A stretch of 64,000 nt of DNA from Escherichia coli (GTDB lineage: Bacteria > Pseudomonadota > Gammaproteobacteria > Enterobacterales > Enterobacteriaceae), in assembly GCF_003790525.1 (NCBI RefSeq), contig NZ_CP033636.1. The stretch is one strand, 5' to 3'. This document shows, in pieces, positions 10,090 to 45,005 of the stretch. The notes under the pieces were generated by a model. That model did no database searches, was not told where the DNA came from, and saw only the letters and a list, made by a program, of their open reading frames with translations. Positions within the stretch are counted from its first letter, which is position 1; the number at the start of each line of letters is the position of its first letter. The position numbers were made by a program, and so were the translations under genes.

Positions 10090-10335
10090 GTTTTATTCCT
10101 TAAAATGGTAATGACCGAGACAATCAAAGGTATATTTAGTAACTGACGAAGAAAATCATATCATGATGAAGTTCTCTGACAAGGGAAATTTTGGTAGTTT
10201 TCTTCAAAAACACAAAAATAAATCCTTTTCATGGTGTTCATTTTTCTATTTTTAATTTAAATATCAATACGTTATAAGGTACTAAAAAAACACTGACGCA
10301 CTCCATAACCACTGAAGTTATTAATCATATTATGA

Positions 10336-10364
10336 TTGACATGTAGCGTAGACACTCATAGACT
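10336..10364 (+). promoter_or_regulatory. Candidate sigma70 promoter for the plus-strand ter-associated biosynthetic operon
   Basis: TTGACA (10336-10341), 17-bp spacer, TAGACT (10359-10364), in the AT-rich divergent intergenic region between terZ and the ATP-grasp gene. Confidence 0.35.
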
Positions 10365-16661: not shown

Positions 16662-17129
16662 ATGCAATTAAATACCAGACAGGCCCGGATTTTTAAGCTT
16701 GCCAACTTACTGGGCACCGGCAAGCCCGTTTCCGCTGCCGACATTATAACCAGTCTGGAATGCTCAGAGCCGACATTAACCCGGGCACTCAAAGAGCTAC
16801 GCGAGTCATATTCTGCGGAGATCAAATACAGCAAGGCAGGTCATTCCTACCATCTCGTTAATCCGGGCCAGCTGGATAAAAAGACCCTTCGCCGGATGAA
16901 TGAAGCGCTCGCACAGAATGCTGAACTGAAAACCGGTGAGTCCACAGGGAAGGTCGTACTCGATAAGGATAAAAAAACAGCCGTGTCATTATCGCTACGC
17001 ATGCGGATTTTAAGAAAAATTGACCGTCTGGCTGCGCTGAGTGGCTCGACCCGAAGTGAAGCGGTAGAGAAGCTGGCTCTGCACTCCGTTGATGAACTGA
17101 TAAAAGAATACAGCGCTAAAAAGTCCTGA
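16662..17129 (+). CDS. terW: TerW-like DNA-binding protein
   Basis: 155 aa; size and position (just upstream of the terY/terX module) match terW; HTH-like segment SAADIITSLECSEPTLTRALKEL. Confidence 0.7.
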   Translation: MQLNTRQARIFKLANLLGTGKPVSAADIITSLECSEPTLTRALKELRESYSAEIKYSKAGHSYHLVNPGQLDKKTLRRMNEALAQNAELKTGESTGKVVLDKDKKTAVSLSLRMRILRKIDRLAALSGSTRSEAVEKLALHSVDELIKEYSAKKS

Positions 17130-17142
17130 CGCTAAATCTCAG

Positions 17143-17168
17143 ACCGGGGTGAAAACCCCGGTTTTGTC
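17143..17168 (+). terminator. Rho-independent terminator after terW
   Basis: ACCGGGGT-GAAA-ACCCCGGT hairpin followed by TTTGTC, 14 nt after the terW stop. Confidence 0.6.
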
Positions 17169-17591
17169 ATATTTCACCTCTGTATCTGCGTGACGGAGTT
17201 TTGATCTATTCTCCTCCCGCAATGTCAGCAGCGCCTTTCTGCCTACAAAACCTGGTGTCTTGACATCCTCTTGTGCTACACATCAATCTTTGGGCGATTT
17301 ACACTCCATTCATGCAGATCTGTGATGTATGATGATTTTCATACATAAGAAAGTTTATTTTTGCCGGAGTTTTTTTCAGAAATTTATATTCCAGTACGGT
17401 CTGAATTTTTTTCTCTGATAAGAGGCCATTCACATGTCGGTAATTCAATGGTGGTTAACTTATTTCTTTAATGCCGCTTCTGAGTATTTAATCTCCACCC
17501 GACAGATGTCGTGCCGTTTTATCAAATCTACAAACTCTGGCCTCTTCCTGAAACTACTCTCCTCTTCCGATCTCTTAAGAAGGAATTACAT

Positions 17592-18230
17592 TTGAGACGC
17601 TTACCCGTATATCTGCTACTCGACACGTCCGGCTCTATGCACGGAGAGCCTATCGAAGCGGTTAAGAATGGCGTTCAGACGCTGCTTACCACGCTGAAAC
17701 AGGATCCGTATGCACTCGAAACGGCTTACGTGTCAGTGATCACCTTTGATTCTTCAGCCCGACAGGCAGTCCCCCTGACAGACCTCCTGAGTTTCCAGAT
17801 GCCAGCACTAACAGCCAGCGGCACCACCTCTCTTGGCGAAGCGCTTTCCCTCACGGCCAGCTCCATTGCCAAAGAAGTACAGAAAACGACGGCTGACACT
17901 AAAGGTGACTGGCGTCCCCTTGTATTCCTGATGACGGATGGAAGTCCGAATGATGACTGGCGTAAAGGCCTGAATGACTTTAAAGCGGCCAGAACCGGCG
18001 TTGTTGTGGCATGTGCAGCCGGGCATGATGCCGATACCAGCGTCCTCAAAGAAATCACTGAAATCGTGGTTCAGCTCGATACAGCTGACAGTTCGACGAT
18101 TAAAGCTTTCTTTAAATGGGTCAGTGCGAGCATTTCGGTAGGCAGTCAGAAAGTGGAGTCCAGCAAAAAAGAAGTGATCGGTCTTGAAGACCTGCCACCG
18201 CCGCCGCCAGAAGTAAACGTGGTCTTATAA
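17592..18230 (+). CDS. terY: TerY-like vWA domain protein
   Basis: vWA MIDAS motif LLLDTSGSM...LMTDGSPND; proposed TTG start at 17592 preceded by AAGGA, in the same context (AGGAATTACAT) as the next terY paralogue; the track ORF starts at ATG 17511 without an SD. Confidence 0.65.
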   Translation: MRRLPVYLLLDTSGSMHGEPIEAVKNGVQTLLTTLKQDPYALETAYVSVITFDSSARQAVPLTDLLSFQMPALTASGTTSLGEALSLTASSIAKEVQKTTADTKGDWRPLVFLMTDGSPNDDWRKGLNDFKAARTGVVVACAAGHDADTSVLKEITEIVVQLDTADSSTIKAFFKWVSASISVGSQKVESSKKEVIGLEDLPPPPPEVNVVL

Positions 18231-18252: not shown

Positions 18253-18894
18253 ATGTCTGTCAGTCTGAGCAAAGGCCAGGGCGTAAGCCTGAAAAAAAAT
18301 GAATACGATCTCTCGTCCGTTACTATCGGCCTGGGTTGGGATATTAATGAGGAAAAGAAAGGTTTCCTCGGCGGGATCTTTGGTAAAAAAGAAGAAGAAT
18401 ACGACCTTGATGTGATCGCTTTCCTGTGTAATTCAGCCGGAAAGGTGACCGATCTCGGCAATGTGGAAAATGGTAAACCAACGCTTGTGAATGGCGATAT
18501 CATCTTTTTCAACAGCCTTCGCCATAAGTCAGGAAATATCTGGCTGACGGGCGATAACCGAACCGGAGCCGGTGATGGTGACGATGAGCAAATTATTGTG
18601 CGCCTGAATTCCCTTGACGCTCAGTACGAGAAAATTGTGTTCATCGTTCAGATCTACAATGGTGAAAAGCTCCAGCAGCACTTTGGTAAAGTTCAGAATG
18701 CCTTCATCCGGGCAGTAGATGCCCGTAATATTGAAATGGCACGATTCGATCTTTCTGGCGGACCCGCCTTCGCCAGCCAGCGCTCCATGGTTTTTGCCGA
18801 GCTGATACGCGAGGCTACAGGCTGGAAACTCAGGGCAATTGGTGAGCCTTCAGAATCAGATTCGTTTGTCTCGCACCTGAGGAATTACATGTGA
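18253..18894 (+). CDS. terX: TerX-like TerD-domain protein
   Basis: 213 aa; [15 protein letters not shown]...GDNRTGAGDGDDE TerD-family pattern; AAGGGGA SD. Confidence 0.8.
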   Translation: MSVSLSKGQGVSLKKNEYDLSSVTIGLGWDINEEKKGFLGGIFGKKEEEYDLDVIAFLCNSAGKVTDLGNVENGKPTLVNGDIIFFNSLRHKSGNIWLTGDNRTGAGDGDDEQIIVRLNSLDAQYEKIVFIVQIYNGEKLQQHFGKVQNAFIRAVDARNIEMARFDLSGGPAFASQRSMVFAELIREATGWKLRAIGEPSESDSFVSHLRNYM

Positions 18895-19532
18895 TGCGCC
18901 GCCTGCCTGTTTACCTTGTTATCGACACATCCGGCTCGATGCGCGGTGAGTCCATCCATTCCGTTAACGTTGGAATTCAGGCGATGCTTAGCGCTCTTCG
19001 CCAGGATCCCTACGCCCTCGAAAGCGTTCATATCTCCATTATCACCTATGACAATGAGGCGCGTGAGTTCATTCCTCTCACGCCGCTGGAAGACTTCCAG
19101 TTTTCTGACATCGTTGTGCCAAGCGCAGGCGGGACGTTCACCGGTGCTGCCCTTGAATGTCTGATGCAGTGTGTTGAACGGGATGTACGTCGCTCAGATG
19201 GTGATACAAAAGGAGACTGGCGTCCTCTGGTATTCCTGATGACTGATGGAACCCCTTCTGATGCCCTGGCGTACGGTGAAGCGGTAAAAGCGATTCGCGG
19301 CCGGGGATTCGGATCCATCATTGCCTGCGCCGTTGGTCCTAAAGCAGGCCATGAGCACTTAAAACAGCTCACCGATAAGGTTGTGTCTCTGGAGACGCTA
19401 GATTCAACCGCGTTTGCAGGTTTCTTTAAATGGGTATCGGCCAGCGTGTCTTCCGGCAGCACAAGCGCGGGGATCAATAACGGAACTGATACCCTTCCCC
19501 CTCCTCCACCAGAAATCCAGCTGGTGCTCTGA
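18894..19532 (+). CDS. terY: TerY-like vWA domain protein (second copy)
   Basis: MRRLPVYLVIDTSGSMRGE...LMTDGTPSD; ATG overlaps the terX stop (TGATG). Confidence 0.7.
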   Translation: MRRLPVYLVIDTSGSMRGESIHSVNVGIQAMLSALRQDPYALESVHISIITYDNEAREFIPLTPLEDFQFSDIVVPSAGGTFTGAALECLMQCVERDVRRSDGDTKGDWRPLVFLMTDGTPSDALAYGEAVKAIRGRGFGSIIACAVGPKAGHEHLKQLTDKVVSLETLDSTAFAGFFKWVSASVSSGSTSAGINNGTDTLPPPPPEIQLVL

Positions 19533-19535
19533 CAG

Positions 19536-19572
19536 ACAGAAAGGTGCTGCTTTCCGGGCAGCACCTTTCTGT
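19536..19572 (+). other. Perfect 15-bp-stem hairpin between two terY genes (intercistronic RNA structure)
   Basis: ACAGAAAGGTGCTGC-TTTCCGG-GCAGCACCTTTCTGT; no U-run follows, so not a canonical intrinsic terminator. Confidence 0.6.
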
Positions 19573-19617
19573 ACAGCAACGTTTTCTGCTGGCCGTACCA
19601 GCCGTACGAGGAAAATT

Positions 19618-20658
19618 ATGAGACGCCTTCCCGTGTTTTTTGTCCTGGACTGTTCAGAGTCCATGATTGGTGAAAACCTGAAAAAAATGACTGATGGTCT
19701 GCAAATGATCATCGGAGATTTAAGAAAGGATCCACACGCACTTGAAACAGCCTGGGTTTCGGTAATCGCATTTGCCGGTGTAGCCCGTACGATTGTACCT
19801 CTTCACGAAATTGCCTCGTTCTACCCTCCCCGCCTTCCCGTTGGCGGCGGTACGAGCCTTGGGGCCGCATTGCGTGAGCTGACCGTACAAATTGATACCC
19901 AGGTCAGAAAAACCACTCATGAGGCTAAAGGCGACTGGAAACCCGTCGTGTATCTCCTTACCGACGGACGTCCGACTGACGACACAACCGCAGAAGTGAA
20001 GCGCTGGAAGGATCACTACGCGAGTAAAGTGAATCTCATTGCCGTTGGCCTGGGGCCGTCAGCGGACCTGAATACCCTGCGGCAACTGACAGAGAATGTC
20101 ATGCTGTTCACCGAGTCTCAGGAAGGGGACTTTACCCGCTTCATCAAATGGATCACAGCCTCGGTTACGGCGCACAGCCGCAGCGTCGGAGACGACAAAC
20201 AACCTGAGCTCAGCCAGACTGAATACATAGTCCGGCTGGCCAAGGACGAGCCAGTAAAAGCGTACGACGAAAACTGCGTTACGCTTACCGGCCGTTGCAG
20301 CAAGACCCGTCGTCCGTATCTGATGAAGTATGAACGGCCACCAGCAAGGATTTCCGGGCTCGATTTCAGCCTGAACCTGAACAGCTTTAATATTGCCGGA
20401 TGCTATCCCATCGATGAAGACTATTTTGCATGGTCAGATGCCACCGCTACCGGTTTGCAGGTAAACACCAGCGAACTGCATGGCGTACCGGGTTGCCCTC
20501 ACTGCGGTAATGCCAGTGCGTTTGCCCTGTGCTCATGCGGAAAATTGCTGTGCATTGACGGCCCGGATGACGTGATCTGCCCGTGGTGTGAAACAGGTCT
20601 GTCATTCAGCAATGATGGCGGAAACACTAACTTCGACGTAAACAGAGGGAGAGGTTGA
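19618..20658 (+). CDS. terY: TerY-like vWA protein with C-terminal cysteine-rich zinc-ribbon-like domain
   Basis: 346 aa from ATG 19618; MRRLPVFFVLDCSESM...LLTDGRPTDD; C-terminal CPHCGN...CSCGKLLC...CPWCE; the track ORF from 19414 is an in-frame upstream extension across the hairpin. Confidence 0.7.
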   Translation: MRRLPVFFVLDCSESMIGENLKKMTDGLQMIIGDLRKDPHALETAWVSVIAFAGVARTIVPLHEIASFYPPRLPVGGGTSLGAALRELTVQIDTQVRKTTHEAKGDWKPVVYLLTDGRPTDDTTAEVKRWKDHYASKVNLIAVGLGPSADLNTLRQLTENVMLFTESQEGDFTRFIKWITASVTAHSRSVGDDKQPELSQTEYIVRLAKDEPVKAYDENCVTLTGRCSKTRRPYLMKYERPPARISGLDFSLNLNSFNIAGCYPIDEDYFAWSDATATGLQVNTSELHGVPGCPHCGNASAFALCSCGKLLCIDGPDDVICPWCETGLSFSNDGGNTNFDVNRGRG

Positions 20659-22295
20659 TGTCGCAAAATGTTTTACTTGAAGAGAAGATTATCCGCTTAG
20701 TGCTGTCTGAGCTGGGCCACCCTGTAGAAGGTGAGCGGCTTTTTCTTCTATCGCACGACCCTTCCCTTACTGAAGAGATTATGCGGCTTAAAGAGCGGAT
20801 TGAGAGCCTTGCACAGGGTTTATCTGCGCGGGTTAGCGAAGGTTATAACGACGCAGAGATCGCCCCCTCGTCAGCATCCAGCCTTTCCGATCAGCAACAA
20901 ACGGTCGTAAGTGATGCTGATAACCCGGGCATTGACGCTACCGATACACCATTACTGCAACCCCTGCCAGAAAATGAACCTCATCCTCCGTTCTGGAAGC
21001 TGATGCCTTATTACGAATTTGATAAACCAGCACAGAGGGAAGACGAAAACCTGTCTTCCCTGGTATTAAAACCCGGGCAGATACCGACAGGCCAGCAGCG
21101 GGCCGGATTAGCTGTGCCACCTGCCGTTCCCCCGAGAGCTAAAATAGTTATTCCCAACGCCCGCGCAGGCGAACGTTTCTCTTCGCCGGTTGCTATAGTT
21201 CTGGATGAGGGCCAGCAGGCTACTGTCAGGGACGTTGTCTTTCCCAGGAACATTGGCCTGACCTTTGACAAAGAGCATAAGTTGCTGACAGGTACACCCA
21301 CCGAAAGCGGCGATATAGAGCTTTCAGTACTCTGGTCATGCGCTTCGCACGACGAATGCGAAACAAAACAGCTTTTTATAGTCAATCCCGATCCGAGAAG
21401 CCTGTGGAAGGTGGTAGAGCCACCAGCAGACGCTTCCTACCCTAAGTCCCATCTGGACGCTGCTGGCCTGGTCAGGGGTGACATACGTATTGCTGCCGCC
21501 AGTCGCCGGGGACGATCTCATGAGCATGCCGGGAGCTTCAGAGATGACGACTTCTATATCAACCACTGCCAGGAAACAGGATGGTCTGTCATGCTGGTCG
21601 CAGACGGGGCCGGTAGTGCGGTAAATTCCCGGGAAGGCTCCCGGATTGCAGTCCAAACGGCTGGCGATTACCTTTTCAATCAGCTCAGTGGTTTGAAAGG
21701 CGTCCATCTAAAGCAGCACATCACGGCGTGGGAAGGGAGCGATCAGCAGGCAACCATAAACGCCATGCTTCATCATTTTAAACAGGCAGCTACGCTCGCG
21801 GTCAACAGTATCCAGAACGAAGCCATTTGTGCAGAACAACCTGTGAAATCCTATTCAACAACCCTACTGGCAACTGTAGCGCTACGAACTGATAACGAGC
21901 TGTTTGCGGCTGCATTCTGGCTTGGTGATGGTGCGATAGGTGCATACAGCCCTTCCGGTAAAGTCAGGATACTGGGAAATCCCGATAGCGGAGAATACGC
22001 AGGACAAACCCGCTTTCTTGACCAGAGCATTATCGCAGACCCCTCGTTTAGCGGCCGCATCAGCGTGGGTAAATGGAATGATGTATCTCACTTGATCCTC
22101 ATGACAGATGGCGTATCAGACCCTCTGTTTGAGACAGATAACGGGCTTCGCAGTGACGAAAAATGGACCCGTCTCCTTGATGAGCTCATCCCTGTCCTTA
22201 CAGACGCCAGTATTGCGCCTGAGAGGTTAGGCGACTGGCTTAACTTTTTCTCCACAGGGAACCACGATGACCGCACTATTGCGGTGTTGTGGTAA
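20655..22295 (+). CDS. PP2C-family Ser/Thr protein phosphatase (ter-associated)
   Basis: 546 aa; PP2C-like motifs (RGRSHEHAGSFRDDDF, LVADGAGS, LMTDGVSD); GGGAGAGG SD; ATGA overlap with the upstream stop. Confidence 0.75.
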   Translation: MMSQNVLLEEKIIRLVLSELGHPVEGERLFLLSHDPSLTEEIMRLKERIESLAQGLSARVSEGYNDAEIAPSSASSLSDQQQTVVSDADNPGIDATDTPLLQPLPENEPHPPFWKLMPYYEFDKPAQREDENLSSLVLKPGQIPTGQQRAGLAVPPAVPPRAKIVIPNARAGERFSSPVAIVLDEGQQATVRDVVFPRNIGLTFDKEHKLLTGTPTESGDIELSVLWSCASHDECETKQLFIVNPDPRSLWKVVEPPADASYPKSHLDAAGLVRGDIRIAAASRRGRSHEHAGSFRDDDFYINHCQETGWSVMLVADGAGSAVNSREGSRIAVQTAGDYLFNQLSGLKGVHLKQHITAWEGSDQQATINAMLHHFKQAATLAVNSIQNEAICAEQPVKSYSTTLLATVALRTDNELFAAAFWLGDGAIGAYSPSGKVRILGNPDSGEYAGQTRFLDQSIIADPSFSGRISVGKWNDVSHLILMTDGVSDPLFETDNGLRSDEKWTRLLDELIPVLTDASIAPERLGDWLNFFSTGNHDDRTIAVLW

Positions 22296-22320: not shown

Positions 22321-23820
22321 ATGGCAAATATTGTTACGTGCAAAACAAAGGACGGCGAAACAGTCCAGTATGTTGACGAGGTAATTGGTTCGGGCTCGAT
22401 GAAGGATGTTTACTTCTCGCCTGATAAATCATACGTCGTCGCTTTTTATCATAAACCGCAGAACGAGCAGGCCCGGGATCGGATTGATATGATCACCGGA
22501 CGCTACAGGCAAAACATTTTTGGCCAGTCCGGAGGTGAATACTGGAAGGACCTGTTTTGCTGGCCGACCCACGTTGTTGAGCATGGGGATAAAATCGGCA
22601 TCGTGGTTCCAACCTACAAAAGCTACTTTTTCTTTAAATACGGCTCTAAAAACGATGATTTTCTTGGCATAAAAGGCCGTGAAAAGGAAGGCAAATGGTT
22701 TGCCAGCGCCAGCAACCAGAATAAATTTCTCGACCCACGTGAACGAGGCAATACGCTTACCTATCTCAAGGTCTGTCTGCTGCTAACAAGAGCCGTCAGA
22801 AGGATGCATGCGGCAGGTCTCTGTCACAGCGATCTAAGCTATAAAAACGTGCTTATCGATCCAGAAATGGGACATGCCTGCATCATTGACGTAGACGGCC
22901 TGGTTGTCCCTGGAAAGTATCCTCCCGACGTCGTGGGCACCCCGGATTTTATCGCTCCGGAAGTGGTGAAAACCAGCCATCTTTCCAAAGAGGATCCGAA
23001 CCGCGTATTGCCAAGCATTTCTACTGACCGTCATGCGCTGTCGGTGCTTATCTACATGTATCTGTTCTTCCGTCATCCGCTACGTGGCGGAAAAATACAT
23101 GACATGTCGGATGAAGTACGTGATGAGACCTTATCTATGGGTGAGAAGGCACTCTTCATTGAACATCCGACAGACAAAAGCAATGCAGTCAAAGTCAGTC
23201 AGCTATCCTCCTTTTCACTGCCCTGGGCTGACCCGGAGAAAATTCCTTACACCATCATGGGCCCTTATTTGACGCCTTTGTTTGAACGCGCCTTTATTGA
23301 TGGCTTACACGATGCCAATAAACGCCCGACCGCCGATGAGTGGGAAAGTGCCCTGGTTAAAACAGTCGATCTGATACAGCCCTGCCAGAACAAGGCGTGT
23401 GAACAGAAATGGTACGTTTTCTCAGGTAAGACAAAGCCGGTTTGTCCCTACTGCGGTACGCCATACAAGGGTAAATTACCGGTTCTAAATTTATATTCAT
23501 CCCGAAAGGAAGGCAGTTATCGTCCTGACGACCACCGGTTGATGGTGTGGAGCGGGCAGTCAATCTATGCGTGGCATGTGAATCGCCTCATTGCGCCAAA
23601 TGAGCGCACAACCGATGCACAAAGGAAACGAGTTGGGTATTTTGTTTTCCATAACGATCAGTGGTGGTTAGTAAATGAAGGCATAAATGGGCTTATGTCA
23701 TTACCGGATAAACGACAGATTGCCATTGGGGAAAAAATTGAACTGACGAATAACGCTCAGTTTGTTCTGTCAAAGGAGGAAGGCGGCAGGCTGGTCGTCG
23801 TTCAGTTAGTTGAAAACTAA
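22321..23820 (+). CDS. Ser/Thr protein kinase with C-terminal zinc-ribbon (ter-associated)
   Basis: Kinase catalytic-loop-like HSDLSYKNVLID and IIDVDG; C-terminal CQNKACEQ...CPYCG; start taken at ATG 22321, track ORF starts at 22267. Confidence 0.7.
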   Translation: MANIVTCKTKDGETVQYVDEVIGSGSMKDVYFSPDKSYVVAFYHKPQNEQARDRIDMITGRYRQNIFGQSGGEYWKDLFCWPTHVVEHGDKIGIVVPTYKSYFFFKYGSKNDDFLGIKGREKEGKWFASASNQNKFLDPRERGNTLTYLKVCLLLTRAVRRMHAAGLCHSDLSYKNVLIDPEMGHACIIDVDGLVVPGKYPPDVVGTPDFIAPEVVKTSHLSKEDPNRVLPSISTDRHALSVLIYMYLFFRHPLRGGKIHDMSDEVRDETLSMGEKALFIEHPTDKSNAVKVSQLSSFSLPWADPEKIPYTIMGPYLTPLFERAFIDGLHDANKRPTADEWESALVKTVDLIQPCQNKACEQKWYVFSGKTKPVCPYCGTPYKGKLPVLNLYSSRKEGSYRPDDHRLMVWSGQSIYAWHVNRLIAPNERTTDAQRKRVGYFVFHNDQWWLVNEGINGLMSLPDKRQIAIGEKIELTNNAQFVLSKEEGGRLVVVQLVEN

Positions 23821-34823: not shown

Positions 34824-34843
34824 TTCAATACCCTCTTAATAGA

Positions 34844-34879
34844 GGGATTTCTCCCATAGGGAGAAATCCCTATGGGAGA
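34844..34879 (-). repeat. Two overlapping, mutually exclusive perfect hairpins between P2 and P3
   Basis: GGGATTTCTCCC-ATA-GGGAGAAATCCC (34844-34870) overlaps TCTCCCATAGGGA-GAAA-TCCCTATGGGAGA (34850-34879); followed by CCCTCT-ATTA-AGAGGG which pairs with the SD of P3. Confidence 0.7.
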
Positions 34880-34891
34880 AAATAATTTTAA

Positions 34892-37376: not shown

Positions 37377-37569
37377 TAAAATGCTCTCCGATGTAAAACG
37401 ACGAGCATCACCATAACGGTAATACTCCCGTTATGGGTTTTAATAGTTTATGGAATAACCATGTCATACAACCGACCATAGCCAGTAGTACCGCACATTT
37501 ATTTAACTGAGCAAGCATCTCAGCCGTGAAAAGACCTTAAAGGCAGGTAATTATCACGAAGGAAAGCGG

Positions 37570-37613
37570 TTATCTTATCAATACAATTTTAAAATATAAT
37601 ATTGATAAGATAA
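37570..37613. promoter_or_regulatory. 14-bp perfect inverted repeat TTATCTTATCAATA / TATTGATAAGATAA with 16-bp AT-only spacer (candidate operator or origin-like site)
   Basis: Read directly; immediately followed by the CCCCCGC-AAAAA-GCGGGGG hairpin (37614-37636); lies between the primase stop and the next gene. Confidence 0.5.
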
Positions 37614-37646
37614 CCCCCCCCGCAAAAAGCGGGGGAGTTATCGTTG

Positions 37647-44978: not shown

Positions 44979-45005
44979 GGAGAAATCCCATGAAGGGATT
45001 TCTCC
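44979..45005 (-). repeat. Perfect 11-bp-stem hairpin, arm-swapped relative of the hairpin at 34844
   Basis: GGAGAAATCCC-ATGAA-GGGATTTCTCC; same stem sequence as 34844-34870 with the two arms exchanged; followed on the minus strand by UUUU, SD and ATG. Confidence 0.7.

Follow-up and report, generated by a model that had tools for sequence, protein, structure and literature searches.

A conserved hairpin, possibly a leaky terminator, at the terY2/terY3 junction of the IncHI2-type ter region

Stable stem-loops between the cistrons of bacterial operons have been described in several settings. REP sequences in malE-malF and the hairpins of the Rhodobacter capsulatus puf operon are intercistronic mRNA stabilisers; typical RNase III substrates are longer, with about 20 bp or more of double strand (two helical turns); and internal partial terminators or attenuators include a 'bidirectional' type, with an A-tract before the hairpin and a U-tract behind it. 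Here we consider a hairpin between the genes terY2 and terY3 of a tellurite-resistance (ter) gene cluster, in a 64,000-nt stretch of Escherichia coli DNA (contig NZ_CP033636.1), the whole of which we call the window. The hairpin has not been described before but is of a familiar sort, either an internal intrinsic terminator or an intercistronic stabilising hairpin, and it brings no new principle. On balance we favour, with modest confidence, its being the IncHI2-lineage form of a Rho-independent, leaky terminator or attenuator that has been kept at the terY2/terY3 junction of Enterobacterales.

The region around the hairpin (18800-20700) is 100% identical to many IncHI2-type plasmids from Salmonella, E. 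coli and Enterobacter. One of them is pKL53-L, on which the two genes bear the names terY2 and terY3 (in 'terY3Y2XY1W') and the names terY1 and terX also match (PMC11003894). Gene order was taken from the RefSeq annotation together with Pfam, for all genes and with their strands (Table 1). Neighbouring genes overlap or lie 0-25 nt apart, all on the plus strand, and the 85-nt gap between terY2 and terY3 is the sole sizeable one in the unit. An earlier reading, made from the sequence only, had placed the hairpin inside what otherwise looks like one operon; the co-directional genes and small gaps bear this out, and its placing of the stem between two terY paralogues is likewise borne out, as both flanking products are vWA proteins.

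Table 1. Features of the terY region in the window, in order of position (d, terminator discriminant score)
Feature	Position	Strand	Remark
terW	16662-17129	+	
Canonical strong terminator after terW	17141-17164	+	Upstream boundary of terY unit; scoring calibrator, d = 24.4
terY1 (vWA)	17592-18230	+	Upstream gene, same transcription unit
terX (TerD family)	18253-18894	+	Upstream gene, same transcription unit
terY2 (vWA domain, 212 aa)	18894-19532	+	TGA stop at 19530-19532, 4 nt before stem
Full stem-loop	19536-19572	+	Perfect 15-bp stem, 7-nt loop TTTCCGG
A-rich tract ACAGAAA	19536-19542	+	Pairs with U-rich tract, lengthening the apparent stem; purine-rich in all close relatives
GC-rich core hairpin GGTGCTGC-TTTCCGG-GCAGCACC	19543-19565	+	8 bp, dG -15.3; best terminator decomposition, d = +2.7
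U-rich tract TTTCTGT	19566-19572	+	Directly 3' of core; 5/7 T, first three T
Small second hairpin CAGCA-ACGTTTTC-TGCTG	19574-19591	+	Loop T-run GTTTTCT, conserved in close relatives
Small third hairpin CGTAC-CAGCC-GTACG	19594-19608	+	Abuts ribosome-binding site
terY3 Shine-Dalgarno GAGGA	19608-19612	+	Within cross-genus motif GCCTGAYGAGG / GCCGTACGAGG
terY3 (vWA + TerY-C metal-binding domain, 346 aa)	19618-20658	+	First of TerY-C/PP2C/kinase trio
PP2C phosphatase	20658-22295	+	Downstream; expression would depend on read-through
Protein kinase/HhH protein	22321-23820	+	Downstream; expression would depend on read-through

Almost the whole of the 85-nt gap is structured, the main hairpin being accompanied by two 5-bp hairpins, and about 45-46 nt separate the 3' end of the main stem from the terY3 ATG. 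Two further sequences in the gap are conserved. The GCCTGAYGAGG motif before the terY3 start is kept to a degree that exceeds the need of a ribosome-binding site alone, and a T-run (GTTTTCTG) about 10 nt 3' of the main hairpin is retained in close relatives (loci L008-L014). Sequestration of the terY3 Shine-Dalgarno sequence was also considered and rejected as not robust: a 141-nt fold pairs the site with the CCUCC proline codons of terY2, and a 241-nt fold pairs it with 19643-19646.

The main hairpin reads ACAGAAAGGTGCTGC-TTTCCGG-GCAGCACCTTTCTGT, with 15-nt arms at 19536-19550 and 19558-19572 and a 7-nt spacer. As RNA it folds with a dG of -27.5 kcal/mol (z = -8.4 against 200 dinucleotide shuffles), two additional U-G pairs bringing the fold to 17 pairs and a 3-nt loop. 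Within a 241-nt context the pair probability is 1.0 for 14 of the 15 stem pairs and 0.93 for the outermost one. The arm sequences and the fold energy thus uphold the perfect 15-bp stem and 7-nt loop claimed from the letters. In 200 first-order Markov simulations of the window, no perfect 15-mer inverted repeat with a spacer of 3-30 nt arose, while the real window has three such loci, so that chance does not explain the hairpin.

Its sequence had also been said to be unlike that of the other hairpins in the window, and this holds apart from one single-arm match. Positions 17228-17242 in the terW-terY1 intergenic region (GCAGCGCCTTTCTGC) match 13 of the 15 nucleotides in the hairpin's 3' arm, where ~0.1 such matches would be expected per window; we rejected this match as a related element, since relatives have no copy covarying with their own hairpins, and it is probably due to chance. 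The window's other perfect 15-bp short-loop hairpin (TTTCTCCCATAGGGA/TCCCTATGGGAGAAA, 34843-34881) overlaps a 13-bp hairpin and has a core, GGAGAAATCCC, in common with a terminator-like hairpin on the minus strand (44979-45005), which suggests that the two may belong to a small family of related hairpins. Elsewhere, at 37568-37615, there is an AT-rich 23-nt inverted repeat, 87% complementary and with a 16-nt perfect core (GGTTATCTTATCAATA…TATTGATAAGATAACC), that looks like a protein-binding palindrome or an origin-like site.

The hairpin had been described as lacking a U-tract. For the whole 15-bp stem this is correct, no T-run following it and the nearest further run, GTTTTCT, lying 10 nt downstream; for the 8-bp core it is not, as TTTCTGT (five T in seven) comes directly behind. 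The core (GGTGCTGC/GCAGCACC) has six G-C pairs and a 7-nt loop, within the range of intrinsic terminator stems (~5-14 bp, GC-rich, with a loop of 3-8 nt), and the terY2 TGA is 4 nt from the stem and 11 nt from the core on the coding strand. Judged by its sequence, the stem is built like an intrinsic terminator in which an A-tract 5' of the hairpin can pair with the U-tract. In intrinsic terminators the U-tract is ~7-9 nt long and U-rich at its proximal end; the one here is short and broken by other bases, with a T-score of 3.05 as against 3.4-5.3 in most orthologues that have canonical terminators. GTTTTCT was tried as an ancestral U-tract displaced by a 9-nt insertion and was dismissed, the distance from stem to ATG being similar in Serratia (48 nt) and in the window (about 45-46 nt), with no net insertion.

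All hairpins of the window and their tails were scored with our own d'Aubenton-Carafa-type scan, in which the stem is trimmed to its GC core. The core with its tail reaches d = +2.7, marginal and above a threshold that is approximate, as is the zero point, the discriminant being the d'Aubenton Carafa 1990 formula with ViennaRNA energies. With both strands counted, no more than 20 sites in the 64-kb window score at least 0, and several of these, when checked against the annotation, are gene ends, e.g., those after terW (24.4) and after the terZ-E operon (58). The junction hairpin is therefore terminator-like and yet marginal on the discriminant score. A simpler terminator scan made no call at 19536-19572. 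It also misses the clear canonical terminators of Serratia, Pectobacterium and Proteus, perhaps through extension of the stem by A/T pairs and intolerance of bulges; being blind to canonical orthologues, its silence at the window site is uninformative.

A TerY-C alignment scan of species-representative genomes gave 80 loci, and every terY2-terY3 gap was extracted. In nearly all of the 80, terY2 is directly upstream of terY3, and nearly all Enterobacterales orthologues have a hairpin at the junction. In Serratia, Yersinia, Pectobacterium, Proteus, Providencia, Budvicia, Affinibrenneria, Buttiauxella and one Enterobacter species the hairpin is followed by a T-run; these hairpins begin 5-18 nt after the terY2 stop and reach d values of up to 29. 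They are canonical terminators of the form GGCAAAG…CTTTGCC with a T-run behind (in Serratia, for example, ACAGGCAAAGCC…GCTTTGCCTGT TTTTTT). The consensus fold of 18 such orthologues has 12 pairs, of which 8 show compensatory double changes, and a T-rich 3' flank. The sequence-only reading had proposed looking for the hairpin at other ter loci; it is conserved there, as a hairpin of terminator type. Edaphovirga keeps the hairpin without a T-run (d = -33). The 21-nt gap of Superficieibacter has no comparable hairpin, and the terY2-terY3 gaps of Acinetobacter and of many beta- and gammaproteobacterial loci are short and unstructured. As far as these sequences go, the element looks specific to the Enterobacterales lineage. 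The ter locus of the K. pneumoniae IncHI1B/FIB type (loci L003 and L004; 2217-2311 in L003) carries a different junction hairpin, GTATGGCAGG…CCTTGCCATAC, which has no T-run, is related to the GGCAGG/CCTTGCC orthologues and is followed by a 6-bp hairpin, GTCCAC…GTGGAC.

Closer to the window are the junctions of Klebsiella sp. BIGb0407, Silvania, a Rheinheimera-labelled MAG and the pECO109b/K. oxytoca type. Although 8-19 positions have changed relative to the window hairpin, 11-13 paired positions remain, with wobbles or bulges; the stability of these hairpins exceeds that expected after random substitution of equal extent (P = 0.046, 0.013, 0.045 and 0.0014). The changes include a swap of A-U for G-C and a flipped GTGC/GCAC block, and all of these relatives retain a purine-rich 5' flank and a T-rich 3' flank of the core (TTCTTGT, TTTTTTG, TTCCTTT and TTCTCTT). 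Such a pattern of substitution indicates that the structure of the hairpin is under selection. Discriminant scores are negative in several relatives: -35 for the C·A-mismatch allele of E. coli chromosomes, -28 for the pECO109b/K. oxytoca type, -26 for Silvania and -80 for the K. pneumoniae type.

The junction is matched by 1,253 plasmids. Identity to the window is 99% or more in 790 of them and 95-99% in 422, so that ~97% have this allele or a near-identical one. The variants that were retrieved mostly keep a 14-bp perfect stem, and their differences cluster at the top of the stem: one C lost (leaving a 14-bp perfect stem), a G-to-A change that gives a C·A mismatch, or a substitution in the loop. 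Plasmid pE5_001 of Enterobacter hormaechei (L089) has a natural 37-nt deletion, aligned to window positions 19544-19580, that takes away the upper 5' arm, the loop, the 3' arm and the spacer and so provides a ready-made knock-out allele of the hairpin; what is left, CAGAAAG|GTTTTCTG, can form a 6-bp mini-hairpin through the second copy of TTTCTG. Lost in pE5_001 and absent in Superficieibacter, the element is dispensable.

We infer termination, leakiness and a stabilising effect at the hairpin along the following lines. A polymerase leaving terY2 would transcribe the A-rich tract, the 8-bp GC-rich hairpin and UUUCUGU. Because this U-tract is interrupted, termination would be partial, stopping some of the polymerases, and those that read through would express terY3, the PP2C phosphatase and the kinase. 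No sigma-70-like promoter was found between the hairpin and terY3, in the window or in three orthologues; with no promoter 3' of the hairpin and the ATG so near, expression of these three genes would need read-through. In terminated transcripts the U-rich tail could pair with the A-rich tract to complete the 15-bp stem, and this stem would keep exonucleases from the 3' end of the terY1-terX-terY2 mRNA. Stabilisation of the upstream mRNA is plausible as a consequence of the terminator stem, not as a separate mechanism. Overall, expression would fall by a fixed step between the upstream genes and the TerY-C/PP2C/kinase trio. In the literature, a "terY operon" is mentioned for Pectobacterium, and a figure on the ter locus of Pectobacterium versatile shows RNA-seq coverage with predicted terminators (PMC7843439, Supplementary Figure 4); our search found no transcript-end or boundary data for the terY2/terY3 junction.

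The products of terY1 and terY2 share a C-terminal motif, both ending in LPPPPPE[IV]-x-[LV]VL (18192-18230 and 19494-19532), and the TerY2 motif hardly varies among the homologous loci that were compared, which range from Enterobacterales to Acinetobacter and Chromatiaceae. In TerY2 (LPPPPPE[IV]QLVL) a run of five proline codons, which could be an EF-P-dependent stall site, stands eight codons before the stop. One could imagine the hairpin as a conditional attenuator coupled to terY2 translation: a ribosome keeping pace with the polymerase would cover the lower stem and allow read-through, and one stalled on polyproline, with EF-P or proline limiting, would free the hairpin and cause termination. 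If true, the ratio of TerY1/TerX/TerY2 to TerY-C/PP2C/kinase would be tuned by translational state. The proline motif is, however, equally conserved in TerY1 and in lineages that lack the hairpin, which makes it primarily a protein feature and leaves the coupling weakly supported; we think it very improbable.

A different motif of the region is the putative TerW operator, published as AATCATATnATGATT (PMC7843439 supplement). Exact and one-mismatch copies are found at 10154-10168 and 10323-10337, in the divergent region that separates terZ from the ATP-grasp gene, and before terY1 (~17318-17345) there is merely a weak likeness (GTGATGTATGATGATTTTCATAC). A motif search of the window gave no match at 19536-19572.

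The main rival to a leaky terminator is a pure mRNA-stability or processing hairpin, lying without termination inside a full-length transcript from terY1 to the kinase. After an endonucleolytic cut downstream, the hairpin would block 3'-to-5' exonucleases and the upstream segment would outlive the downstream one, as happens with the REP sequences of malE-malF and the Rhodobacter puf hairpins. A stem that is long, perfect and very stable, with a poor U-tract, is in keeping with this, and so is the stability retained in relatives whose terminator scores are strongly negative, including the T-run-less hairpin of the K. pneumoniae type. Relatives that keep the hairpin and score poorly as terminators fit a stabilising role at least as well. 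Nevertheless, full canonical terminators stand at the junction in most Enterobacterales orthologues, and the A-rich and U-rich flanks of the core are conserved in close relatives, though a simple exonuclease block needs neither; we consider stabilisation or processing without termination a real possibility but a rather unlikely one. The sequence-only reading had proposed that the hairpin sets differential mRNA stability or acts as a processing site. Different levels upstream and downstream of it are indeed possible, but given canonical terminators in the orthologues and a stem composed of A-tract, GC core and U-rich tract, a terminator-type element is a better reading than a processing site devoid of a U-tract. 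We think it improbable that the hairpin does nothing in IncHI2 plasmids today, whether as the decaying remnant of an ancestral terminator or as a neutral palindrome. The dispensability seen in pE5_001 and Superficieibacter would suit such decay, as would the clustering of variation at the stem top and the existence of one common allele with a C·A mismatch. Against this, the stem is perfect in most plasmids, diverged relatives keep a stability beyond that of random substitution, with compensatory changes, and decay or deletion would be the expected fate of a neutral palindrome.

Explanations at the DNA level fare worse. A perfect inverted repeat could be the binding site of a dimeric regulator such as TerW, within the operon, especially as TerW sites are palindromes and one has been proposed before terY1 (PMC7843439). 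Yet the published motif is unrelated to the hairpin and matches only at 10154 and 10323, and across relatives the hairpin sequence turns over fully with pairing kept and the proteins conserved, which is the signature of nucleic-acid structure and not of a sequence recognised by a protein. We give such a site even less credence than coupling to translation. Least probable of all is that a dispersed palindromic repeat or a miniature mobile element (REP, BIME, ERIC or MITE-like) was inserted between the genes, although some lineages have an intergenic hairpin and others lack one. In 5,426 complete E. coli genomes the 81-nt segment is confined to ter loci, the doubled count of its places probably reflecting a palindrome that matches both strands, and the window has no second copy. 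Nor is there an Rfam family match: the Rfam 15 covariance models gave no hit at their gathering thresholds, and a permissive search returned generic miRNA-precursor hairpins only (13-18 bits, against thresholds of at least 74 bits).

If the leaky terminator is confirmed, the terY region of IncHI2 plasmids and the related chromosomal ter islands would be split into two expression tiers, an upper one of terY1-terX-terY2 and a lower one of the TerY-C/PP2C/kinase signalling trio. This would be of use in annotation and in reading the expression of a widespread and poorly understood stress-resistance cluster. The locus also illustrates a pitfall, in that a terminator whose U-tract pairs with an A-tract before the hairpin can be taken for a long stem that lacks a U-tract, and so escapes simple scanners.

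Set beside the systems with which we began, the junction hairpin resembles each in part. With RNase III stems such as those of rpsO-pnp and of phage T7 early mRNA it shares a long, perfect, intercistronic double strand; unlike them it has only 15-17 bp, short of 20, and its length is not conserved, closer relatives having 11-13 bp with wobbles or bulges, so the suggestion of an RNase III or RNase E processing site finds no specific support. Like the REP sequences of malE-malF and the puf hairpins, it is a stable stem-loop between cistrons that could favour the lifetime and abundance of the upstream segment, but it belongs to no repeat family and its orthologues are terminators; REP and BIME elements exist in many copies at intergenic sites that are unrelated, and this one is found in ter loci only (5,426 E. 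coli genomes) and once in the window. The internal partial terminators and attenuators of the A-tract/U-tract 'bidirectional' type differ from it in that its UUUCUGU is interrupted and fully paired in the folded RNA, its score is marginal, and the junction has no convergent gene to use the reverse orientation. With them it nonetheless has in common a GC-rich hairpin with a 7-nt loop just after a stop codon, a U-rich stretch directly 3' and a complementary A-rich stretch 5', a place between co-directional genes with no promoter found behind the hairpin, and orthologues that are textbook terminators.
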